IMG/VR virus record: IMGVR_UViG_3300036884_000676 | Strand: one strand, 5' to 3' | DNA length: 64,000 bases | DNA from: a virus | Lineage: Duplodnaviria > Heunggongvirae > Uroviricota > Caudoviricetes | Shown: piece after piece, positions 254 through 58,792 of the stretch | Position numbering within the stretch: the first letter of the stretch is position 1 | Layout: the number at the start of each line of letters is the position of its first letter | The notes under the pieces: model-generated | Database searches by the model: none | What the model saw: the letters and a program-made list of their open reading frames with translations, nothing else | Told to the model about the DNA's origin: nothing | Program-made: the position numbers and the translations under genes

Positions 254-2083
254 TTAGATTAAGTAACCATGTGTATCAGTAACTTTAATACTCATGTATT
301 GTTTTTCTGGGAAGAAACCGATATCAGATACTGCGTATCTTGAACGGATTAACATTCTTGGTGCCCATGTTGCTTCACTGATTAAACTGATAGACTGTGC
401 CATCAAATAAGGAATGAAAACAAGACCCGGCTGGTCAATTGTGTTCTTTCTTCCTACGAAGATTTGATTGTCATCCCATCTCATGTAAGGATCTACATAA
501 ATTTGGATGTTACCGATGTTACCCATTGGGTATAACTGACCGTTGGTGTTTAATTTACCAACATTGGTTGGGTTAAGTGTGTAACCAGCGATATCTTGTA
601 ATACGGAAGCGATGTTACCGTTTGTTACTAAATATTGAGCTGGTCCAATTCTACCATCAGTAGCGATGAAGTTAGAAGCGTTGTTGATCTTGGCAACTAA
701 CTTTCTTTGAATTGTGTGGGTTGTTTCACCACCCGGTGCGTAACCAGTTGCTGACAAGTAGGTATCAACATTGAAGTCAAATTTACTTGTTCCGTCTGCG
801 TTCTTTGGACAGGTGTTTGAAATTCTGTTCTTAGCTGCCAAACTTCTGATCTTAGCTACGATTTCTTTTGAAATAACCTGAGTTAATTCATTGATAAGAA
901 CACCTTCCAATTTCTGAACGATGTCCATTCCAGTAGCGGCTTTAATATCCTCAATTTGAGTTCTCTTTAAAGCTGAACTGATTTCGATGTCACCAACGGT
1001 AACAACTTTTGTGAATACGTCAGGACCAATAACACCCGGATAGGTCTTTTCATCCTGATATCTGTTCATTGCACCACCACCGTTTGACTTGTAGTTATCT
1101 CTGTCTGCGGCTGCTTGAGCTGACCATGCATCTTCGAAACCATTTTGTCCTGCTGAAAATCCCGGTAATTGATCTTCCAATAAGGAAACCAATGTGATTG
1201 TGGCACCAGTGATATAACTTGTCCAAGTTGGAACAACTGATGTAGTTGTACCTGAAGCGTAGACGAAACCACCGATTAAAGTAGTTGTCATGGCTGTAGT
1301 TTGGTCAAATGTATTCTTAGCTGCTGTCCAAGCTGAACCATCTTGTGGTAATACTGGACCAACTGAGAAACCAGCTTGACGATAACATCTGAAAATTGGT
1401 AATCCATCAATTCTGGAGAATCCTAAGAATTCCAACCAGTTTACTTTTGATGCTGTTCCCGGACCACTTATTAAGGTTTTACCACTACCACCAAAGGTTG
1501 TGTCACTACCTAAATAAACCCAAGTTCTCTTATCAATTCCACCAATTCTTTCTTGAATCTGATAAACACCTAATTGCCATTTCAAATCAGCGATGATAGC
1601 TGCTGTAATAGTAGCTGCTGTTGCACCACCACCTTGTAATTTGAAAACCAATGGTCTTTGTTCAGCTTCTTGATCTTCACGAGATCCATCACCATAAGCA
1701 TTATCGTATTTGAAATCTACGAATAACAACTCAATTCTTGGAGAAGCGGTTGGTTTTACAGCTACTAAATCTAAACCGATTGTTTGAGCTGCGATCTTCA
1801 TTGATACTGGAAGTAAATTCTGTGCAACATCACCACTACCGATGTTACCAGCACCTGCTTGCCATACTGAAGATGGGATAGTTCCAACTGTTGGAGCTAA
1901 AATGTTACCCATACCGTTTTGGTTAAGGTTGACATATGCCACGTTTTCATTGATATGAAGCTGGTGCATTTCAGCGTATTCGGCCATCCATTCTCTTTTT
2001 TCTTCGTCCTTTACTTTTAAGGCTTCGAGGATTGGTGTCCATTTCTTTAAAGCTTTTGCTTTGTCTACTATAAAGTGTGTCAT
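254..2083 (-). CDS. major capsid protein, T4 gp23-like
   Basis: C-terminal FIPYLMAQSISLISEATWAPRMLIRSRYAV resembles the gp23 PY...F.P......RY motif; VKP motif; directly follows protease and portal; putative maturation site INE at aa 44-46. Confidence 0.92.
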   Translation of the reverse strand: MTHFIVDKAKALKKWTPILEALKVKDEEKREWMAEYAEMHQLHINENVAYVNLNQNGMGNILAPTVGTIPSSVWQAGAGNIGSGDVAQNLLPVSMKIAAQTIGLDLVAVKPTASPRIELLFVDFKYDNAYGDGSREDQEAEQRPLVFKLQGGGATAATITAAIIADLKWQLGVYQIQERIGGIDKRTWVYLGSDTTFGGSGKTLISGPGTASKVNWLEFLGFSRIDGLPIFRCYRQAGFSVGPVLPQDGSAWTAAKNTFDQTTAMTTTLIGGFVYASGTTTSVVPTWTSYITGATITLVSLLEDQLPGFSAGQNGFEDAWSAQAAADRDNYKSNGGGAMNRYQDEKTYPGVIGPDVFTKVVTVGDIEISSALKRTQIEDIKAATGMDIVQKLEGVLINELTQVISKEIVAKIRSLAAKNRISNTCPKNADGTSKFDFNVDTYLSATGYAPGGETTHTIQRKLVAKINNASNFIATDGRIGPAQYLVTNGNIASVLQDIAGYTLNPTNVGKLNTNGQLYPMGNIGNIQIYVDPYMRWDDNQIFVGRKNTIDQPGLVFIPYLMAQSISLISEATWAPRMLIRSRYAVSDIGFFPEKQYMSIKVTDTHGYLI

Positions 2084-2106
2084 AGTTTATTTTTTTATTA
2101 TTTTTT

Positions 2107-2144
2107 TATTTATATATTTAATCAAAAAACTCACTTTTTTCCAT
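2107..2144 (-). promoter_or_regulatory. late promoter of capsid gene with upstream element
   Basis: Minus strand AATGGAAAAAAGTGAGTTTTTTGATTAAATATATAAATA; contains the T4 late consensus TATAAATA. Confidence 0.75.
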
Positions 2145-2187: not shown

Positions 2188-4644
2188 TTAGTATCTGTTA
2201 AGAACATTTTTCATATGCTCAACTTGTTCATCAGAAAGTGAATAATTATCGTATGTATTTATGTTTTCATTCAATACTTTCTTTCCTGTGTTAGCTTGTG
2301 CATATTGTAGAAGATCTCTGGTTAACCAGAATGATTCTACTTTTTTCTCCGTAGTTAAGTCAGTATAGAATTGTGCTGTATCTAAAATACTTTCTTGTAC
2401 TTTCGGATTTAATTTTTCCCAAATTGGCTGTAAGTCACTTGGAATATTTTCAACCAATGTTTCATTTAATGATCTGGTTGGTTTGAACAATGCTTTCTGC
2501 ATTAATATAAGAACATCACTTTCGTTTGAATAATTTCCCTTGTTTTCGTTCATGACAAAGTTTACTTTTTCCTTATCTTCTGGAGTTAAACCATAATAAG
2601 CGGCTTTCTTCTTTTCAGGTAAGAATAATAAGAAGTGAGGATCTTCTGTCTTAGCGGCTTCGCGTTTTTTAGCGGCTTCGATGAGTTTCTTTATGTCTTT
2701 TGTTATCTGATTCGTATTTTCGTAAATTTTGGTTGTACCTAAAATTGTAAGTCTACTTTCTTCGACTTCAACTTCTTCGCCAGTATCTCCCATTTTTACA
2801 ACTACAATTTTTGTAGTATCATCTGTTGCGAGAACTTCACCTGTACGAGTTGGTTCTTCAGTAGCTCCTTCAGTACCTTCTGGTTGTGCTGTTTCTTCAT
2901 CTTTATCTCCCTTAACAGTAACAATCATACCCGGAGTAATACCTAAACCTGTTTCTTCTTGTGGTGGAACTTCCTCAGTATTTACACCTTCAGCATCCTG
3001 AGCTGGTGTTTCTTCTACTGGTGGTGTTTCACCTTGTACTGGTGCTTCCTGAGCTGGTTTTTCTTCAGCTGGAGGTGTTTCCTGAGCCGGTTCTTCAACC
3101 TTAGGTTCTTCTGTTGCACCATCTGCTGGTTTTTCTTCTGGTTTATCTTCATAATAATTTGAAGGATCATCAGTTGTCATATCACCAATGGCTTCAGTAA
3201 CACCTAATTTCTCAACAACTCTCTTTGTGTAGTCAATGTGTCTATCAATGACTTCTGCTTCATATTTTTGATAAGCGATAGAATCGGTAAGATTTTCAGC
3301 CAACATTTCTGAATAACGGATACCGTTATCAGTTTGTTCTGCTACATATTCACCATATCTGATAGCGTTATCTACATGCTCGGCGATGTATTGAGTATAA
3401 TCAACAATCTTTTCTGCACTTTCACTGATGTAATCGGCGTAATCAACAAGATTGTCAACCGTTTCGGCTACATATTCAGCGTACATAATGTTCTTATCGA
3501 GATGTTCTGCGATATAATCAGCGTAATCAGCTATCTTATCAAAGTTTTCAGCGATGTATTCACTATATTTAATAGTGTTTTCAGTCTGTTCAGCTACATA
3601 TTCGATAAAACTAATACCGTTATCTAACTTTTCAGCGATGTATTTTTGATAATCAATAACTTGGTCGGTTGTACCTGCTAAATAATCAATATAACCAATT
3701 GTTTTTTCGACTGCTTCTGCGATGTGGTCGTTGTGTTCGATAATGAGTTTTGTTTTTTCTTTGTTTTTCTCAACTCTTTCTTCCAGTTTGTCGTTTGTTT
3801 TCTTCAACTGTTTGTTTTCTTGAACTAAAACATTAATCGCGTCTGCTATCTGATCAAGATATTCGGCCATTCTTTTTTGACCCTCGGATAATGTTTCGAA
3901 TTCTTCATAAAGGCGAGAGAGTTTTTCCGGATCGAAATTCTTTGAATTAAGAGTTTCTTCAATGGAATTTTTTGTTTTCAATAACTCACTGTCTAAATAG
4001 GATTTGAACTCTTCCAATTTTGTCTGAGTTCCAATTTCGTTTTTTTCCATATTGAACAATTCATTTATTTTTGACTCCTCAGATATATCGAATATCCTGA
4101 AGTTTAAATTTTCATTGAATCCCAATGATTCATTCATGTTTTTCAATTCCATTCGGGCTGAACTAAATCCGGGGTCTGCAACACAATCATAGGTGAATAA
4201 CTTTTTAATTGTTACTTCACCATTCGATTCTGTTACACCGGCAGCTCTACTGGAAACGAAAATAGGTAGGTCATCATCTACAAGAGCTTGTGCTTCCTTT
4301 CCATAAAAGGTATTAGTTAATTTAATTTCTCCATCAACTCTATTGGTTTCCTTTATAAACCAAGCATTTTGAATTGTATGAGAAATACGAGTTAAGCTAG
4401 TATCAAATACATCTGGATGATCAAACTCTCCATAGACAACTTTTAACAGTTTTTTTCTTTCTAATAATTCACTAAGATGGGGTAAGAATTTCTCTGCGGT
4501 GTAAATCCTGTCATTTCTATTTCTAATATTGAATTCTGTAAAAATACCCTTCATGATATATAGGATATTACCCTTACTACTTACGACCTCATTGATTTTC
4601 TCCAGACCACCCAATGTATTATCAATTATTATTACATTTTTCAT
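2188..4644 (-). CDS. prohead protease (gp21-like) fused to scaffold/core protein
   Basis: N-terminal NRNDRIY, GEFDHP, SSRAAG and TYDCVADPGFSSA motifs of gp21; followed by 14-aa coiled-coil repeats and an acidic Pro-rich linker. Confidence 0.9.
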   Translation of the reverse strand: MKNVIIIDNTLGGLEKINEVVSSKGNILYIMKGIFTEFNIRNRNDRIYTAEKFLPHLSELLERKKLLKVVYGEFDHPDVFDTSLTRISHTIQNAWFIKETNRVDGEIKLTNTFYGKEAQALVDDDLPIFVSSRAAGVTESNGEVTIKKLFTYDCVADPGFSSARMELKNMNESLGFNENLNFRIFDISEESKINELFNMEKNEIGTQTKLEEFKSYLDSELLKTKNSIEETLNSKNFDPEKLSRLYEEFETLSEGQKRMAEYLDQIADAINVLVQENKQLKKTNDKLEERVEKNKEKTKLIIEHNDHIAEAVEKTIGYIDYLAGTTDQVIDYQKYIAEKLDNGISFIEYVAEQTENTIKYSEYIAENFDKIADYADYIAEHLDKNIMYAEYVAETVDNLVDYADYISESAEKIVDYTQYIAEHVDNAIRYGEYVAEQTDNGIRYSEMLAENLTDSIAYQKYEAEVIDRHIDYTKRVVEKLGVTEAIGDMTTDDPSNYYEDKPEEKPADGATEEPKVEEPAQETPPAEEKPAQEAPVQGETPPVEETPAQDAEGVNTEEVPPQEETGLGITPGMIVTVKGDKDEETAQPEGTEGATEEPTRTGEVLATDDTTKIVVVKMGDTGEEVEVEESRLTILGTTKIYENTNQITKDIKKLIEAAKKREAAKTEDPHFLLFLPEKKKAAYYGLTPEDKEKVNFVMNENKGNYSNESDVLILMQKALFKPTRSLNETLVENIPSDLQPIWEKLNPKVQESILDTAQFYTDLTTEKKVESFWLTRDLLQYAQANTGKKVLNENINTYDNYSLSDEQVEHMKNVLNRY
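3211..3735 (-). repeat. about 13 x 14-aa protein repeat, [YF]xx[YF][IV]AE
   Basis: YQKYIAE, FIEYVAE, YSEYIAE, YADYIAE, YAEYVAE etc. at an exact 14-residue period. Confidence 0.9.
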
Positions 4645-4667
4645 AGTCTATGGTTTCAATGCTTTTT

Positions 4668-4703
4668 TTATATATATTCACCAAATAATATGGTATTTTT
4701 CCA
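4668..4703 (-). promoter_or_regulatory. late promoter of protease/scaffold gene
   Basis: Minus strand AATGGAAAAATACCATATTATTTGGTGAATATATATAA, about 25 nt before ATG. Confidence 0.65.
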
Positions 4704-4761: not shown

Positions 4762-5106
4762 ATGCTAATTTCAAAGATTGTTCAGATTGTAATTACGAAA
4801 AGAAATATCGGATTTTTTCGTAAAAAAGGATACGATGCTGAAATGATGGATACCCTTAGTGTATTTGTGGGAGATTTACCCGAAAATAGTCATTGTGAAG
4901 TTGATGTTTCTTGTGATAATTGTAAAAAAATTAGAAAAATGAAATATTTTGAGTATAAAAGATATGGTGATAAATATATGTGTAGACAATGTTCGGAAGG
5001 TAAAAGGCAAGAAACAAGCATGAAAAATTGGGGGGTTGATAATCCCTCCAAGAGTGATATAATAAAACAAAAGATAAGTGATACCTTAAAAAAATTAAAA
5101 TCTTAG
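4762..5106 (+). CDS. small Zn-ribbon protein with WGVDNPSK motif (resembles homing-endonuclease N-terminal parts)
   Basis: CDNC...CRQC and KNWGVDNPSKS; has its own promoter motif. Confidence 0.6.
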   Translation: MLISKIVQIVITKRNIGFFRKKGYDAEMMDTLSVFVGDLPENSHCEVDVSCDNCKKIRKMKYFEYKRYGDKYMCRQCSEGKRQETSMKNWGVDNPSKSDIIKQKISDTLKKLKS

Positions 5107-6917
5107 ATAGTGGGTGTTTGTCCACCACCTTGTCCTTGTCCACCGGCCTGACCACCTCCACCCTGAGGTCCACCAGCTGGGCCACCCTGAGGAACACCAC
5201 CTTGCGGTGCACCACCCTGAGGACCACCAACACCACCTTGCGGTGCACCACCCTGAGGACCACCAACACCACCTTGAGCACCACCTTCAGGGGCACCACC
5301 TTCAGGAGGCGGAATTTCTCCACCACCACCCGGACCACCACCACCCGGCTCTTCTGGTGGATTTAATCCCTGCTCTAGCATAAATTTCTTTCGTTCTATC
5401 ATTTTATATTTCTCATTTTCTTCAATATCTTTATCAGTGAATTTCATGATATTACGGGCTATCCATTCAACACTTAAATATGGTTTATCTCCCATATCTC
5501 TTAAATTACTGGATAGATTGGCTGCTATTGATGCCCTTTTATCTAAGTTGGCTAAATATTTCCATTCTTCAAATAACACATCAGAATTAAACATTAACTT
5601 CATAGAGTTAAAGAATACAACATCTTTCTTTAATTCTGGAAAATTCAAAATCATTTGAATTCTCAAAGGTTTAGTAATAATTTCTTTAAAAATGGTTCTA
5701 ATACGATTGATAAAATTCTTGAACTTAATTTCATCTCTGGTTATCTGAGTAGTTGAGTCATATAATGTACCACCACCACTTTCTTCTTCGAATCTTTGGA
5801 ATGGAATTTTACTTGCTCTTTTAAAATTCTTAAAGAACCATTGTAAAGTAACATCTTCTGCTAGATTATTTTGTTCTGGTTTTACTATTTCGAATGATGG
5901 TGTTTGACCAGCACTTGATGGAAACCAGAAATCTTTTGCGTGAGGAATGTTTGTACTTCCATTCATCATAACCAATCCTAAGTGTTCATCCCATTGAACA
6001 TCTTCATGGTAATCGGACATTAATTCATAAATCTGTTGTTCGGCTTGTTGACGGGATAAACCATCAACTGGAATTATAAATTTTTTGTAAAGAGAAGCTT
6101 GATTAATATTGTATAATAATTTTGCCTGTTCAATCATTTTTAATTGATTAAAAGGTCTAATAAGGTTTTCAACATAACTTGTATCACCATATTCATTATT
6201 ATTAGAATATGATATGTATACAATTTGTGAATCCAATAATACTCTACGAAGTTGAGGATTATCTGGGTATTGAATCCAGATCATTGTATTGGATACTGGA
6301 TCTGTAGCCACAATTAATGTTATTGGATCAAGTGGGGCCAAATCTATGATATTTTTTTGACGATCATCATAAATGATTTCATAAGCGATATAACCATCAA
6401 TCAATAAACTTTTAAGATAATTCCAAGCAACGACACCATCAATAAAATTGAATTCGTTCATTAATCTATCAAACACTTCTTGATATTTTTGTCTTGTTGT
6501 TTGGTCGTAACTATCTGGTAAATCCTTTATATAACAAAATTTGTTATTGTCATCATATATAATACACTCATCACATATTTGAATGATGAAGTCCTTTATT
6601 TCATCTTTGATTGAATATTGTCTTAGAATTTTTCTTTTATCTAAATATGTTCTATCTAAATAGGCTATTGATTTCTTATCGAGAAAACGAGCAATCGTTT
6701 TTTTAGTAAATAAATCATACATATTTGTACTCTGGGGATGGTATAAAACATCACTCGTTTCTTCATGAACACCCAAGGCATAAGCATTTTTGATCTTCAT
6801 ATCATTATAATCAAGACCACCAAAAACATTAGATAATCCTCTTAAAACTCTGTTGAAAATTGTCGGGTTTTGTTGGGCTGACTGTTGACTTGAATAATCA
6901 CCTCTATAACTTGCCAC
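5103..6917 (-). CDS. portal protein, T4 gp20-like, with Gly/Pro-rich C-terminal tail
   Basis: NQLKMIEQA, DFWFP and ITRDEIKFKNFINRIR match gp20 motifs; synteny with head genes; GTG start. Confidence 0.93.
   Translation of the reverse strand: MASYRGDYSSQQSAQQNPTIFNRVLRGLSNVFGGLDYNDMKIKNAYALGVHEETSDVLYHPQSTNMYDLFTKKTIARFLDKKSIAYLDRTYLDKRKILRQYSIKDEIKDFIIQICDECIIYDDNNKFCYIKDLPDSYDQTTRQKYQEVFDRLMNEFNFIDGVVAWNYLKSLLIDGYIAYEIIYDDRQKNIIDLAPLDPITLIVATDPVSNTMIWIQYPDNPQLRRVLLDSQIVYISYSNNNEYGDTSYVENLIRPFNQLKMIEQAKLLYNINQASLYKKFIIPVDGLSRQQAEQQIYELMSDYHEDVQWDEHLGLVMMNGSTNIPHAKDFWFPSSAGQTPSFEIVKPEQNNLAEDVTLQWFFKNFKRASKIPFQRFEEESGGGTLYDSTTQITRDEIKFKNFINRIRTIFKEIITKPLRIQMILNFPELKKDVVFFNSMKLMFNSDVLFEEWKYLANLDKRASIAANLSSNLRDMGDKPYLSVEWIARNIMKFTDKDIEENEKYKMIERKKFMLEQGLNPPEEPGGGGPGGGGEIPPPEGGAPEGGAQGGVGGPQGGAPQGGVGGPQGGAPQGGVPQGGPAGGPQGGGGQAGGQGQGGGQTPTI
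5195..5276. repeat. 36-nt tandem repeat (about 2.3 copies) encoding GGPQGGAPQGGV
   Basis: caccaccttgcggtgcaccaccctgaggaccaccaa at 5195-5230 and 5231-5266. Confidence 0.95.
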
Positions 6918-22954: not shown

Positions 22955-22966
22955 AAATATATATAA
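22955..22966. promoter_or_regulatory. near-symmetric late-type motif between divergent kinase and RuvC-like genes
   Basis: AAATATATATAA lies 20-25 nt from both starts. Confidence 0.5.
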
Positions 22967-22987
22967 AAAAAGCAATCCAATAATTTT

Positions 22988-25094: not shown

Positions 25095-25346
25095 TTATTT
25101 TATACGGGTAATTTTATAAGTTCTTTGGATATATTCATCTCCAATCTCAGCAAATTCTCCCCAATCAGTAATAGTTTCATCCCATTTATCATCCAGAACG
25201 GTTTCATCTTTCAATTTTTCTTCTAATTCGGGTAATTCTTCCAAAGAATATTCATCGGTATATCCACGACCAGTTAAATCTTTTAAGAGAAATAATTTTT
25301 CTCCATCAATATCTTCATTTATAAAATCTTTATATCTCTTAATCAT
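25095..25346 (-). CDS. putative internal head protein (CTS)
   Basis: Begins MIKRYKDFINE. Confidence 0.7.
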   Translation of the reverse strand: MIKRYKDFINEDIDGEKLFLLKDLTGRGYTDEYSLEELPELEEKLKDETVLDDKWDETITDWGEFAEIGDEYIQRTYKITRIK

Positions 25347-29026: not shown

Positions 29027-29518
29027 ATGATAAATATGATATTAGATTATGACAATTTTTTAAACGAGATAAACACTAATCAACAACCAGTAGCAGCTAA
29101 ACCAGCACCAGTTGCCAAACCAGCCACACCAGTTGTTGCTAAACCTGTGTCGACTACTAAACCAGTTGTTGCTAAACCTGTTTCTAAATCCGTAGAACAA
29201 CCTAAACCCGTAGAACAACCTAAACCCGTAGAACAACCTAAACCCGTAGAACAACCTAAACCAGTTTCGAAACCTGTAAATCAACCTAAACCTGTCACAT
29301 CCAATCAACAACCGAAACCGACTATAAATAATACAGCTGACGTAGAAAAAAAGATTTTAACACATATAACGAACTTATTCGATACCATTAAAAAGAAAAT
29401 ATCTGGGAAAAAAGAACCCACAACTCCTGAACAAACTAAGGAACAACCAAAAGAGCAACCGACTGAACAAACTAAACAACAACCAACTGAACAAAAACAA
29501 GAAACACCAATATTATGA
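29027..29518 (+). CDS. CTS-bearing low-complexity Pro/Lys/Gln protein
   Basis: MILDYDNFLNE; KPVEQP repeats. Confidence 0.65.
   Translation: MINMILDYDNFLNEINTNQQPVAAKPAPVAKPATPVVAKPVSTTKPVVAKPVSKSVEQPKPVEQPKPVEQPKPVEQPKPVSKPVNQPKPVTSNQQPKPTINNTADVEKKILTHITNLFDTIKKKISGKKEPTTPEQTKEQPKEQPTEQTKQQPTEQKQETPIL
29191..29262 (+). repeat. 18-nt perfect tandem repeat x4
   Basis: cgtagaacaacctaaacc x4, in frame (VEQPKP). Confidence 0.95.
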
Positions 29519-29898
29519 TAACGAAATTTCAAGATTTTCTCAATGAGGATAATGATATTCAAAAAAGAATATTGGATAGAATAAATAGGGAATTTGATAA
29601 GATAAGGTCAAAAATGCCACCAAGAGAAGAACAATCAAGTCCACCAGAAAAGATAGAACCTGAGAAAAATAAAGAGGGGAAAAAGGTCTCAAAAGCAAAA
29701 GAACCAAAACTCAAACCAGAAGAATCAAGATTTGATGATAAAAGATTAGATGATGCCTTTATTGCCCTGAAAGCTATGGGATATACCGAAAAGGCAATTA
29801 TTGAATTTTTGAATAGGATAGAATTAGAAACGACTGATACAGCCGATAGTATTGTTGAGTATGGTGTTAGTAACGCTAAAAAGGTTCATTTATTCTAA
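29515..29898 (+). CDS. CTS-bearing protein with RuvA-C-terminal-like helical domain
   Basis: MITKFQDFLNE; DDAFIALKAMGYTEKAI resembles the RuvA domain III A..AL..LGY motif. Confidence 0.6.
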   Translation: MITKFQDFLNEDNDIQKRILDRINREFDKIRSKMPPREEQSSPPEKIEPEKNKEGKKVSKAKEPKLKPEESRFDDKRLDDAFIALKAMGYTEKAIIEFLNRIELETTDTADSIVEYGVSNAKKVHLF

Positions 29899-29955: not shown

Positions 29956-30210
29956 ATGAACTCAGAATTAAAAAGAAGGTTTTTCCTTCAGAAAATTGAA
30001 GATTTCAAATCAGATAATTGTCAACCATATCCGACAGTTATTTGTGAAATGGAGCGATCTAATATTATTGAAATAATAAGAAAAAATGTTCTTTTTTCAA
30101 CTATAATGAAACCGTGTACTTCATCTAATTTTAATCCAGAAGTAAAAGAAGTATTAGGAAAAGCATCAAATGACTTTGGTGATTTATATATTTTAGTATA
30201 TCCGAATTAA
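29956..30210 (+). CDS. hypothetical early protein
   Basis: Likely start 29956, since ATG 29935 abuts the -7 box. Confidence 0.55.
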   Translation: MNSELKRRFFLQKIEDFKSDNCQPYPTVICEMERSNIIEIIRKNVLFSTIMKPCTSSNFNPEVKEVLGKASNDFGDLYILVYPN

Positions 30211-30944
30211 TCCTCAAATTTTTCGATCCCAATTACATTGTATTTTCCATCCTCTTTCAGAGTAATTTCATTTTCATCTGGAAAATATAAGTTATTTATA
30301 ATAGTTTCATTTACATCTATTTGATCTTTTGTTGTTTCTATTTCAACAATGAATCCGTTGTGATCTTCATTCGCCATTATTGAATTCAGAAAATCATGAT
30401 CTATATCTCCTTTTCTTGTAACATAATGTACACCCAATTGATGCTGTTTAATTTTACTTTCATCTTCCACATCAAGATATCTGAATAAGTGTAACTGACT
30501 TGGAATATTCTTGAATCCTATTGGATAATTTAATTCTGTTTTATCCAAACAATTCTGAATACTTTGTTCGGCTGTCCAACCCACTTGACTACTATCGGTT
30601 AAAGTTGCCATTATTTTTTCCAAATCCAGTTTGGTTATATTACCGAAAGATTTTACAGTATGTTTTTTTGGTTCTTTTAACAATATAGGAACATCACTTT
30701 TTTTGATTATGAAATCATATTCAAAATAATCGAATTTTCTATATTTTATCTTATTCAGTTTGAATTTGGTTCTCAATATTCCGGCATTTTCCCTACCATT
30801 TGTGAATATCAAAACTTCATCATTCTTTAATCTATTTAAATATTTTCCCCAATTCTTTTTTACATCACTATAAGAATAAATAGTAAATCCATCTTTCTCT
30901 TTTGCTTCATTAATAAAATTTTCAAATAGTAATAAATATTTCAT
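30207..30944 (-). CDS. CTS-bearing protein with ADP-ribosyltransferase-like C-terminal domain
   Basis: MKYLLLFENFINE; LFRYL...LGVHY...DENEITL (R...ExE); late motif 30949-30959. Confidence 0.55.
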   Translation of the reverse strand: MKYLLLFENFINEAKEKDGFTIYSYSDVKKNWGKYLNRLKNDEVLIFTNGRENAGILRTKFKLNKIKYRKFDYFEYDFIIKKSDVPILLKEPKKHTVKSFGNITKLDLEKIMATLTDSSQVGWTAEQSIQNCLDKTELNYPIGFKNIPSQLHLFRYLDVEDESKIKQHQLGVHYVTRKGDIDHDFLNSIMANEDHNGFIVEIETTKDQIDVNETIINNLYFPDENEITLKEDGKYNVIGIEKFED

Positions 30945-31004: not shown

Positions 31005-31427
31005 ATGAAAAATCTAAAAACATTCATTGAATTTATAAATGAAGCTGATGCGAAAACTGCTTTAAATGTAATAGGTAGTAAAGAACAGCAGAAAACAGAT
31101 GTCAATCAAGATAGAAAAACTCCTGAGGGTGAGAAAGAACAAAAATTTCAACAGAAAACTAAAAATCAGGCACTCACCAGAACAGATGAATTAGAAAAAG
31201 CAGCTAAAGACATTGATACCAGACAACAGACAGCCAACAAAAGAATGGATGATATAACATTAAAACAAGATTTATTACCAGATGATCCAAATAAAAGGAA
31301 AGAGTTTTTAGATTCCACAAAGAATGATCTAAAAGATGTTGAGGGAGAACTTAATAACGCGGAACAACAAAGAAAATCACTTCAAAAACAAAAAGATAGG
31401 ATCAAAAATAACTTTTTAAAGAAGTAA
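31005..31427 (+). CDS. CTS-bearing coiled-coil protein
   Basis: Start 31005, MKNLKTFIEFINEA; late motif 30975-30985. Confidence 0.7.
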   Translation: MKNLKTFIEFINEADAKTALNVIGSKEQQKTDVNQDRKTPEGEKEQKFQQKTKNQALTRTDELEKAAKDIDTRQQTANKRMDDITLKQDLLPDDPNKRKEFLDSTKNDLKDVEGELNNAEQQRKSLQKQKDRIKNNFLKK

Positions 31428-56776: not shown

Positions 56777-57595
56777 TTAATCATTATCAAGATTAGAATT
56801 ACCATGACTATCAACACTTGGTTGTACTCTTTCATCATCTTTTATACCATATCTATTTGGTCTCCCTTCTGATTTTATTGATGAATATTTATCAGGATAT
56901 AAATATTTAACAAAATCTTCATCTTTAAGGGTATCTACTGGTATTTTAGGATATTCATATCCATATGTATCATTTGCGAAATATTTCTTCTCCTTATGAT
57001 TAATATCAATAACACACAAACCTAAGTCGTTATACTTATAATTAAATAGCATTAATTTTTCTTTTTTGCCTCTTATATAGAAAGTTATGGTTATACCATT
57101 TACTCCCTCATTCCTGACGAGCGGAGATACTTCCGATGAACCGACAATATTTTTTAATCTTTGTCCTAATTCCTGAGCATATGTAATAATTTCACTATCT
57201 TTCATTTCTACAAATTTCTCAAATGTTTTTGATTCATATCCTCTATCCACTACATTGATTAATGTATCTGGACTTCCAGCCTTACCAGATGGATCAAATA
57301 TTTCTGGTTCTACATCATATTCAGAACCAAGATATAAAGTCATAAAAATTCTGAATCCCGTTATATGTTCGATTAATTCATCAACAACTTCTTCTGGGGT
57401 ATCTGTTACATTACTCATAAGATATTCTTTCAATTCTTCATTGGTAGAATCCTCGTCATTATTAACAATCTCCATCAACATATCCCAATCAGCTAAATTA
57501 GAATATTTCTTTTTAAATTCAGTAACCCATTGTAAAAATTCCTCTTTTTTTGGAATATCACTTCTTTCATTGATGAAATCTTTAAATCTTTTCAT
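56777..57595 (-). CDS. putative internal head protein (CTS)
   Basis: MKRFKDFINE; second internal motif KTFEKFVE. Confidence 0.7.
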   Translation of the reverse strand: MKRFKDFINERSDIPKKEEFLQWVTEFKKKYSNLADWDMLMEIVNNDEDSTNEELKEYLMSNVTDTPEEVVDELIEHITGFRIFMTLYLGSEYDVEPEIFDPSGKAGSPDTLINVVDRGYESKTFEKFVEMKDSEIITYAQELGQRLKNIVGSSEVSPLVRNEGVNGITITFYIRGKKEKLMLFNYKYNDLGLCVIDINHKEKKYFANDTYGYEYPKIPVDTLKDEDFVKYLYPDKYSSIKSEGRPNRYGIKDDERVQPSVDSHGNSNLDND

Positions 57596-57604
57596 TCTTA
57601 TTAA

Positions 57605-57925
57605 TTATTTTTTTGGTCCATTCAATACAAAATCAGAAAACTTGGTAAAAACTTTTGGCTTATTATTTTTATTACCTTTTTTACTTTTCTTACTTTTTTT
57701 TCTATCTAATTTATCAAAACGATCACCCATATCATAAGCTGCTCTATCCCCACTTCCGACAGTACCAGATCCACCTTGCCAAACTGAACCCGGAAGTGAA
57801 CCGACTTGAGCTGTTGTTATATTACCCATTCCATTGATATTGGCTGTAGCAAAAGCTGTACCACCTCCACCGTCTCCATCTTCATTTAACTTTATGTATT
57901 CACTATATTTTATAATTTTTTCCAT
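57605..57925 (-). CDS. CTS-bearing protein containing a copy of the capsid N-arm
   Basis: KYSEYIKLNE, then 39 aa with 22 identities to capsid aa 49-87. Confidence 0.8.
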   Translation of the reverse strand: MEKIIKYSEYIKLNEDGDGGGGTAFATANINGMGNITTAQVGSLPGSVWQGGSGTVGSGDRAAYDMGDRFDKLDRKKSKKSKKGNKNNKPKVFTKFSDFVLNGPKK

Positions 57926-57928
57926 GTT

Positions 57929-58156
57929 TTACTTTTTAATTTCTTCAACACTGAAATCGTGTAAATAATTTGTTCTTTTAAATTCACTTGCCTCTCCTCT
58001 TGTTTTAAATTGTTTTGCATCTTTCTTAGACTTTGAAGTAATAATATGATCTTTCATCATAATTTCTTGAAAATATGTATTATCTTTATCTTGCAAAACA
58101 AAAACTAATTTATCTTTCTTTTCTGTGAATTCTTCGAATAATTTGATGTATTTCAT
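57929..58156 (-). CDS. putative internal head protein (CTS)
   Basis: Start 58156, MKYIKLFEEFTE. Confidence 0.7.
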   Translation of the reverse strand: MKYIKLFEEFTEKKDKLVFVLQDKDNTYFQEIMMKDHIITSKSKKDAKQFKTRGEASEFKRTNYLHDFSVEEIKK

Positions 58157-58182
58157 AATATTTTGTTTATTTTTAGATGTCA

Positions 58183-58713
58183 TTATCTCCATGTTGTTTG
58201 ATTTTCCCAATATTTTTTATTTAATTTGGTTATTGATTTTTTTTCTTCACCAGATTTACCAAAATTTATTACTTTCACTTTATCACCTTCTCTTGCTAAA
58301 ACACGATATTTATGTTTACCTTTTCCCTCATATTTCTTCGGATGATTAAACCCCGGAAAAGTTTCATTCCTATATTTTAAACCATGAGCCAAACGCTCAA
58401 CATCTACACTCTCTCCCTCTGTTAATAGAGATTCTTCCATTTCTTCACCACCTTCCATATATTCATGTCCATCTAATTCGAAACCATGTTTTTTTGCGTA
58501 TATATCCGCGTGATAATAAACATGATCAATCCCACTACCGTTTCCTATTAATTCTTCTACGCTGTCATATTCTGGTAGTTGACCATTTTCTTTACACCAT
58601 AAATCATAATGATATAACCAATGTTCCAAGATGTTATCAGGTATTAGACCATAATCTACCTCGTAGTAATCACTCTCATTAATAAATTCTTCATATTTCT
58701 TAATTCTTTTCAT
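58183..58713 (-). CDS. putative internal head protein (CTS)
   Basis: MKRIKKYEEFINES; late motif 58735-58745 heads the operon 58713 to 56777. Confidence 0.7.
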   Translation of the reverse strand: MKRIKKYEEFINESDYYEVDYGLIPDNILEHWLYHYDLWCKENGQLPEYDSVEELIGNGSGIDHVYYHADIYAKKHGFELDGHEYMEGGEEMEESLLTEGESVDVERLAHGLKYRNETFPGFNHPKKYEGKGKHKYRVLAREGDKVKVINFGKSGEEKKSITKLNKKYWENQTTWR

Positions 58714-58792
58714 GGTATGTGAAATAATTTTCTGTTATATATTAATTTCTAACAGTGATTTTTTATATATACCTAAAAATAACTGACACTAA

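Follow-up and report, generated by a model that had tools for sequence, protein, structure and literature searches.

In bacteriophage T4, the first 25–26 residues of the mature major capsid protein gp23* (residues 66–91) make up the N-fist (PMC9958956, PMC7136217). The N-fist is disordered until shell expansion, and before expansion this segment lies inside the prohead, probably against the scaffold core (PMC9546572). On expansion it is moved to the outside, where it touches four subunits (PMC9958956, PMC9546572, PMC7136217); these contacts stabilise the expanded lattice (PMC9958956, PMC7136217), and the outer surface is reached only through the tether of the fist to the N-arm (PMC9546572). 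The capsid-length mutation A66D lies within the N-fist, whereas A94V and G97S fall a little past its end, still in the flexible N-terminal region (PMC9546572). No N-fist is described for the vertex protein gp24, and fists that face the portal are disordered (PMC9958956, PMC7136217). The addressing of proteins to the T4 scaffold core is still called 'mysterious' (PMC9958956). Here, we analyse a 64,000-nucleotide stretch (the window) of the IMG/VR record IMGVR_UViG_3300036884_000676, a virus of the class Caudoviricetes. A small open reading frame (ORF) in the window, at 57605–57925 on the minus strand, encodes a 106-residue protein, P0002, that carries a copy of the post-cleavage segment of the phage's own major capsid protein (MCP).

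We put at roughly 0.5 the probability that P0002 is a conserved, intrinsically disordered minor protein of the prohead core or of the head interior. On this reading it would be processed by the prohead protease, would serve as a surrogate MCP N-terminus and would leave behind a basic, DNA-associated peptide of 91 residues.

A small tagged protein copies the post-cleavage segment of the capsid protein

The MCP (P0001, 609 amino acids; 254–2083, minus strand) belongs to the gp23 family. It matches Pfam PF07068 (E=1.4e-27) and T4 gp23 PDB chains; with phmmer, only its C-terminal half aligns to gp23. Among public genomes, the 'Mahaphage' records LR756501 and LR756503 (735 kb) come closest; their MCP is 68% identical by tblastn. 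MCP residues 47–87 (1823–1945, minus strand), the template of the mimic, extend from the predicted HINE/N cleavage site to a conserved N-arm helix, LLPVSMKIAAQTIGLDLVAVKP, which follows the copied segment. They are preceded by the pre-cleavage helix EEKREWMAEYAEMHQLHINE (residues 27–46; 1946–2005, minus strand; helix predicted at 27–41), which BLASTP pairs with the N-terminus of P0002. The AlphaFold2 model of the MCP monomer, built from a 48-sequence alignment, gave no predicted structure for residues 47–87 and, at a mean predicted local distance difference test score (pLDDT) of 58, was too poor for fold searches or for mapping of the fist.

A preliminary description of this DNA had reported 22 ungapped identities over 39 positions between MCP residues 49–87 (nt 1823–1939, minus strand) and P0002 residues 24–62. 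Our recount agrees, and BLASTP detects the pair with E=2e-13 (26/61 identities) in an alignment that covers the core and the [LI]xE protease site and reaches back into the pre-cleavage helix. The putative protease-site motifs noticed earlier, HINE in the MCP and KLNE in the small protein, are both present, as are the Lys-rich stretch and the C-terminal FTKFSDFV, described then as a second motif resembling a capsid-targeting sequence (CTS). When the MCP was searched with tblastn against the whole 110-kb record, the P0002 ORF was the sole significant second match (E=1.6e-9). By BLASTP and tblastn, P0002 is homologous to the propeptide end, the cleavage site and the post-cleavage segment of a gp23-like MCP.

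The P0002 sequence, encoded throughout on the minus strand, begins with an N-terminal tag, MEKIIKYSEYIKLNE (residues 1–15; 57881–57925), whose final L-N-E is a T4-type [LI]xE prohead-protease site motif. An Asp/Gly-rich flexible linker, of variable length in the homologue alignment (residues 16–23; 57857–57880), leads to the capsid-like core (residues 24–62; 57740–57856), where G32, M33, G34, G46, G57, S58, G59 and D60 are invariant in the family. The Lys-rich basic tail (residues 75–91; 57653–57703), a K/R-rich stretch kept in all homologues, is followed by a second tag-like helix, VFTKFSDFVLNGPKK (residues 92–106; 57608–57652), with no Glu at the cleavage position. The KLNE site is followed, later in the chain, by a basic region, RKKSKKSKKGNKNNKPK. 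An AlphaFold2 model made with the family alignment has no fold (predicted template-modelling score, pTM, 0.14); only residues 7–13 and 96–102 are helical, and these are the two tag-like ends. The counterpart of P0002 in the MCP is limited to MCP residues 31–87, the remainder being linker and Lys tail. The HK97-fold body and T4-type insertion domain of gp23-like MCPs (PF07068) are absent, with no Pfam match and no predicted fold, and no Pfam or PHROG family was found for P0002 at E<=0.01–0.1.

The preliminary description had called the copied segment the N-arm. Its position fits instead residues 66–91 of T4 gp23*, the N-fist (PMC7136217). The segment is the N-fist equivalent by position and not the N-arm proper. 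The equivalence is positional only, since the N-termini cannot be aligned by sequence and the MCP model is too poor: no similarity is detectable between the T4 fist and the GMG...GSGD segment of the MCP, and a BLASTP alignment of the two N-termini extends over the first ~20 residues only.

The small proteins form a family under purifying selection

When 5.8 billion proteins were searched for homologues, 28 small ones of 87–166 amino acids were found to share the plan of P0002: an N-terminal helix ending in [LI]xE, a variable Asp/Gly linker, the core and a Lys-rich stretch. All 28 carry, as a protein of its own and behind a tag, a copy of the MCP segment found after the maturation site. A protein identical to P0002 was also found on a contig of 736,551 bp. 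The core is the best-conserved part of the family, with the eight invariant residues and the consensus TAFATxNxNGMGNIVxPQVGSxPGSVWQxGSGTIGSGD. The family consensus contains the C-terminal motif PKxxTKFSDFLxGPK, as do most of the closer homologues; the Mahaphage orthologue has no C-terminal tag-like helix.

A profile search of 1.84 billion cluster representatives extended the family to 323 members (84 at E<=1e-10) of 74–533 amino acids, many of which match the profile at two or three places. Polyproteins built from two or three tag-linker-core-basic modules occur among the relatives, and in these the position of the P0002 C-terminal helix is taken by the cleavable tag of the next module. Megablast of the small-gene locus against GenBank phages gave no match, nor did a single-sequence scan of IMG/VR. 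A profile scan of IMG/VR did give matches, several of which were the MCP itself.

Among four orthologues of the small gene, the pairwise ratio of non-synonymous to synonymous substitution rates (dN/dS) was 0.13–0.43 at dS of 0.8–2.3, and indels in the family are in frame. Recurrence as small ORFs in relatives and purifying selection, both put forward in the preliminary description as checks, are thus borne out, and none of the outcomes named there as refuting was seen. Judged by this conservation, the small ORF is a real gene under purifying selection, not a decaying fragment. On these data we reject a pseudogene reading of the ORF.

The core co-varies with the resident capsid protein at clade level

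Small proteins were paired with MCPs from the same genome in five complete huge-phage records (LR756501, LR756502, LR745206, LR756504 and LR756500), two IMG/VR genomes that are 97–98% complete (G008 and G010), two partial IMG/VR contigs (G001 and G011) and the cultured Tenacibaculum phage PTm1. By family-profile search, all ten contain the MCP motif and one or two small-mimic genes each; the PTm1 member is ORF-299 (BBI90691). The same search gave no match in Lak-A1, whose MCP has LGSGD and no GMG.

Small proteins have lineage-specific features in common with their own MCPs: SVWQ.G.G..GSGD in this window, GATIGTNWSS in LR756502, GMGPV in LR756504, NVNG[MI]G...PGDP...[ST]FS.Q..GSGD in LR756500 and SYG.Q.P...VGMGAV.LP.VS......N...RGSGD in PTm1. 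From the cleavage-site Glu onward, PTm1 ORF-299 and its MCP have 22/39 identities (E=2e-11). A four-clade matrix was constructed by scoring each small-protein core against each MCP segment (mean local BLOSUM62 score). Own-clade means were 114, 78, 95 and 103, compared to 31–63 for cross-clade comparisons. In clades C and D the small protein is far closer to its own MCP than to the small proteins of other clades (<=38). A permutation test over the 10 genome pairs gave p=1.7e-4. One-to-one matching of small proteins with MCPs was also sought within clade A, and none was found. The co-variation with the capsid anticipated in the preliminary description is therefore seen at the level of clades and not, in clade A, genome by genome.

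A single old duplication followed by independent divergence should produce clade-independent scores; the reciprocal pattern needs co-evolution, gene conversion or repeated re-copying. By these comparisons, the capsid copy has stayed matched to the MCP in at least four phage lineages, including that of the cultured PTm1.

Codon usage bears on the age of the match. In this window, the same codon is used at 7 of 20 identical residues (Met and Trp excluded), against 9.0 +/- 2.1 expected from codon usage. Synonymous sites are thus randomised, and the amino-acid match is old and maintained. Raw same-codon counts in four other genomes were similar (8/18, 9/22, 8/17 and 11/24). The exception is LR756502, where 17 of 21 codons are common to the small gene and the MCP gene. 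Here, the small gene (L013) and the MCP gene (L008) share an exact 27-nt identity, GGTGCTACAATTGGTACAAATTGGTCA, encoding GATIGTNWS. In its sister LR745206 this peptide occurs in the small gene only, which suggests short-patch gene conversion in LR756502, with transfer from the small gene into the MCP gene as the probable direction. If this direction is correct, conversion occurs and the MCP tolerates a small-gene patch. In one polyprotein (L028) the first module is nearer to the MCP version than the second, which argues for repeated re-copying.

The N-terminal tag resembles a scaffold repeat and is predicted to be removed

The cognate gp21-type (S77) prohead protease is encoded by the ORF at 2188–4644 (minus strand; 818 amino acids), in which it is fused to a coiled-coil scaffold. 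The ORF matches phrog_207, head maturation protease, with E=8e-25; its match to Pfam PF03420 (E=3.2e-5) is under the curated (gathering) cut-off. The scaffold part contains ten 14-residue repeats, DNxIxYxEYIAExx, in exact period (3247–3666, minus strand; the third is ENTIKYSEYIAENF). Each repeat terminates in a protease-site-like [IV]-A/S-E triplet, so that the scaffold could be cut into pieces of ~14 residues. Scaffolds of clade B have about 13 copies of the same repeat, LDKNIxYSEYIAEN. In the W05 and PTm1 scaffolds a Y-x-E-Y-I-A-E repeat was not seen with a simple pattern.

The P0002 tag MEKIIKYSEYIKLNE has the length (10–15 residues), amphipathic character and [LI]xE ending of a CTS. Scored on a position-specific scoring matrix (PSSM) of the scaffold repeat, its IKYSEYIKL reached 11.9 bits, while the maximum over 1086 internal control windows was 7.9. 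The tag outscored every other ORF N-terminus of the record, and none of the other leaders scored high on this PSSM. The likeness of the tag to a single scaffold repeat suggests that addressing works by co-assembly with the scaffold, which would bring P0002 into the prohead core.

Leaders of a related kind are common in the G000 record. About 24 unrelated ORFs (for example 25095–25346, 29515–29898, 30207–30944, 31005–31427, 56777–57595 and 58183–58713) begin with M-K-x-F-x-x-F-I-N-E, close to the T4 CTS MKTYQEFIAE. The pre-cleavage helix of the MCP, EYAEMHQLHINE, shows the same pattern.

An [LI]xE site precedes the Gly-rich linker in 28/28 homologues, and no such site occurs in the predicted mature parts. 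The pooled mature parts (2582 residues) contain 32 Glu and 151 Asp, against a genome background of 7.5% Glu and 6.4% Asp, together with 351 Lys and 48 Arg. The predicted mature product of P0002 has no Glu at all, and its C-terminal FTKFSDFVLNG keeps the aromatic spacing of the tag, also without Glu. Depletion of Glu and absence of [LI]xE are expected of an unfolded protein that survives a Glu-specific prohead protease. PTm1 ORF-299 (AP019524.1, 216794–217627) has an extra N-terminal domain of ~165 residues that matches phrog_2859 (unknown function) and precedes NIIE/SLLE/SYGQQ...; its fist-like basic part would come off a larger precursor.

Proposed role of P0002 and alternatives

The account that we favour begins with duplication of the 5' part of the capsid gene, comprising the pre-cleavage helix, the protease site and the N-fist-equivalent segment; the Lys-rich tail would have been added later. 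P0002 would be made together with the head genes. Its N-terminal helix, which is like one 14-residue scaffold repeat and, more loosely, like the T4 CTS, would bring it into the prohead core, where a gp21-type protease would cut the helix off at L-N-E. The core would then bind the partner of the MCP's own post-cleavage segment. If T4 is a guide, this partner is probably the scaffold core before expansion and an inter-capsomer docking site after expansion. A core that engages the partner of the MCP segment would make P0002 a surrogate or a competitor for MCP N-termini in assembly. Finally, the Glu-poor, protease-resistant product of 91 residues would remain in the head with its basic tail on packaged DNA. 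Purifying selection, together with occasional re-copying or gene conversion, would hold the core in step with the resident MCP. Since the T4 segment probably faces the scaffold core before expansion and the tag matches the scaffold repeat, a role in the scaffold core is at least as likely as one in completing the shell.

Several points weigh against this proposal. Expression, packaging and cleavage are predicted from sequence for every member of the family, and the partner of the core is a putative one. Co-variation is found between deep clades only and is absent within clade A. With four clades, the permutation probability of the reciprocal pattern is only 1/24, though effect sizes are large; the weight of the clade result comes from this effect size and from the shared indels. 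An old gene conversion followed by separate purifying selection on the two copies would yield the same pattern with no shared partner. The match of the tag to the scaffold rests on a 7-residue identity (IKYSEYI). The C-terminal tag-like helix is dispensable in at least one lineage, that of the Mahaphage orthologue, and in this window the small gene lies 55 kb from the head-gene module. A complex prediction with MCP residues 88–609 and P0002 residues 16–70 scored 0.00; run without controls, it speaks neither for nor against binding.

The most serious competitor, which was the chief suggestion of the preliminary description and which we consider doubtful, is that the free core completes the shell as an N-fist surrogate, filling the inter-capsomer groove that normally takes a neighbour's N-fist wherever no MCP fist is present, as near pentons and the portal. 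Pockets on the inside that are left empty by expansion may be filled as well, with the Lys tail tying DNA to the shell. A docking groove in the MCP body would account for the clade-level co-variation, no full-length second MCP paralogue was found in the genomes of four relatives, and the four-subunit contacts of the T4 fist, which stabilise the lattice, the absence of a described fist in gp24 and the disordered portal-facing fists (PMC9958956, PMC7136217) fit such a role. However, the T4 fist is externalised only by its N-arm tether (PMC9546572), and a free peptide carrying a polybasic tail would more probably remain on the DNA. Both tags of P0002 are scaffold-like and so indicate the core rather than the shell, and the multi-module polyproteins speak for a copy number beyond what a few vertex sites require.

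We hold it similarly doubtful that the giant capsid contains the free fist-like peptide as a genuine structural element, docked from inside in MCP grooves, either after the MCP fists have moved outward or at vertex- and portal-adjacent sites that have no fist, with its polylysine tail gripping the outermost DNA layer. If this were true, the shell would be coupled to the genome and, taken with the 'mini-MCP' paralogues of Mahaphage described below, huge phages would build or size their capsids using capsid-fragment accessory proteins.

P0002 could also be cargo. Adenovirus core peptides VII and mu and the basic internal proteins of T4 are models for a DNA-condensing peptide, and in such a scheme the tag and the core would only deliver the protein into the prohead, through scaffold binding like that of the MCP, the basic tail being the functional product. 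The Lys-rich tail is universal in the family, the product is depleted of Glu, and a genome of ~736 kb has much DNA charge to be neutralised. We regard this as unlikely, since about two dozen other proteins of this genome seem to manage with a short leader alone. The core, moreover, is the best-conserved part and, unlike the tag, stays on the predicted product, which would be odd for a dispensable address label.

An improbable function is that of a protease decoy or timer, an analogue of T4 Inh, whose MCP-like cleavage region would buffer or delay cleavage of the MCP and the scaffold. The mimicry does take in the pre-cleavage helix and the [LI]xE site, multi-module relatives carry several sites per chain, and T4 has a head-located protease inhibitor (by the annotation of inh). 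Yet the residues after the site differ (NVAYVNLN in the MCP, a variable-length Gly/Asp linker in the small proteins), 10 to more than 20 residues separate the conserved core from the scissile bond, and a decoy has no need for a lasting product depleted of Glu and rich in Lys.

It is very improbable that the small ORF is a non-functional relic, left when part of the capsid gene was duplicated or converted. Mahaphage does have scattered partial MCP copies, with an in-frame stop in two of the tblastn matches, and gene conversion with the MCP does happen. The small ORF, however, is intact, its multi-part architecture recurs in hundreds of clusters with in-frame indels, dN/dS is below 0.5 with saturated dS, and comparison with the MCP shows randomised synonymous sites but 55% retained residues.

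Gene context

The small ORF is part of a tight run of four same-strand genes (56777–58713, minus strand), and its three neighbours in the run bear T4-like leaders. The ORF directly upstream (57929–58210, minus strand) is in the same frame and is separated by the spacer TAA-AAC-ATG only. Its product consists of a leader, MKYIKLFEEFTE, and a ~60-residue domain of unknown family. In homologues P0009 and P0024 the upstream ORF and the small protein are fused into one ORF, and the two may be a former polyprotein. For many profile matches, length and match offset suggest the same fusion.

An AT-rich promoter-like motif, TATATATAAAAAA, lies upstream of the four-gene run (58759–58771, minus strand). 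It occurs exactly upstream of the protease-scaffold gene (4664–4676, minus strand), with one mismatch upstream of the MCP gene (2102–2114, minus strand), and also at 22958–22970 (plus strand). With at most one mismatch there are 15 matches, compared to 2.7 expected. We consider it a candidate late-promoter element.

The T4-type portal protein is encoded at 5103–6917 (minus strand; Pfam PF07230, E=1.5e-64; phrog_213). In PTm1, the portal and protease-scaffold genes flank ORF-299, a slot that in T4 belongs to genes 67 and 68. In this window the gap between the portal gene (5103–6917) and the protease gene (2188–4644) contains no member of the small-gene family, only a plus-strand ORF of 114 amino acids.

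Other capsid-fragment paralogues

The Mahaphage genome LR756501.1 encodes at least five more partial MCP paralogues (L072, L075, L077, L078 and L079). One, a 'mini-MCP' of ~196 amino acids, joins the propeptide to a shortened fist, the N-arm, part of the spine helix and the C-terminal strand. In another, a frame of 459 residues, the N-arm helix is copied almost exactly (PVSMKIAAQTIGLDLVKVKP). Two partial-MCP tblastn matches in this genome hold an in-frame stop. No full-length second MCP of the gp24 kind was detected in the genomes of the four relatives. A further LR756501.1 frame of 77 residues (L023) starts with MITLNQNGMGRIIAP, identical at 11 of 13 positions to residues 49–61 of its own MCP; a leader is lacking, and the remainder of the protein is unrelated.

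In clade B, LR756502.1 (L021) and LR745206.1 (L022) encode a second, shorter paralogue with the leader MKHLKNYKSFNE, a fist-like core (AGMGGVSPAQPG...GSGD), a short basic patch and an acidic tail.

Comparison with known systems

A free-standing copy of the post-cleavage segment of an MCP is not described in the T4 head literature consulted for this comparison, where the fist occurs only inside the MCP (PMC9958956, PMC9546572, PMC7136217). The copied segment resembles the T4 N-fist in its place between the maturation cleavage, which it directly follows, and the conserved N-arm helix, in being rich in Gly and in being disordered, the T4 fist until it is assembled and P0002 by prediction. The family offers a mimic of the scaffold-facing, size-determining N-terminal segment of the MCP, matched over deep divergence, and it bears on the open question of how very large capsids are sized, stabilised and filled. 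It also adds at least 323 unannotated clusters to the set of head proteins of Bacteroidota-type jumbo and huge phages. Through its cultured member, PTm1 ORF-299, proteomics, cryo-EM and genetics come within reach.

P0002 is like the T4 internal proteins IPI, IPII and IPIII and like Alt in its short amphipathic CTS-type tag, which ends in [LI]xE and is predicted to be removed by a gp21-type protease. As with the internal proteins, its mature product is basic and is predicted to stay in the head with the DNA, and its gene sits among other leader-tagged genes. Unlike IPI, IPII and IPIII, to which it has no sequence homology (no Pfam or PHROG match), P0002 has as its body not an effector domain but a disordered copy of a segment of its own MCP, and it has a second, uncleavable tag-like helix at the C-terminus.

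Gp67 and gp68 of T4 are small scaffold-core proteins processed by gp21, and mutants in their genes have aberrant head shapes. In gp68 a SINE/N site is followed by the very basic KRKKALKRRK, and P0002 has the same succession of site and basic region. PTm1 ORF-299 occupies the same portal-protease gene slot, in contrast to the small gene of this window, 55 kb away from the head module. BLASTP gave no alignment of gp68 with P0002; gp68 matches phrog_1049 at 1.7e-71, while P0002 matches no PHROG. No copy of the gp23 N-fist was apparent in gp67 or gp68 when these were inspected by eye.

Outside the T4 group, the adenovirus proteins pVII and pre-mu are small, highly basic precursors that are trimmed by the virion protease and stay on the packaged genome. 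They belong to an unrelated virus, with an unrelated protease and sequence, and have no capsid-mimic segment. CpmB, a small protein encoded by the parasite SaPI1, mimics the scaffolding protein of phage 80alpha, binds the MCP, competes and alters assembly. With CpmB as with P0002, a small protein copies a short recognition segment of a capsid-assembly partner; here, however, the mimic is encoded by the phage itself and is one of the MCP N-terminus rather than of the scaffold. By its tag, its [LI]xE site and its predicted basic product, P0002 would act like a CTS-tagged internal protein or a gp68-type core protein while being homologous to neither, and its family suggests a class of head-assembly or internal head proteins that is so far undescribed.

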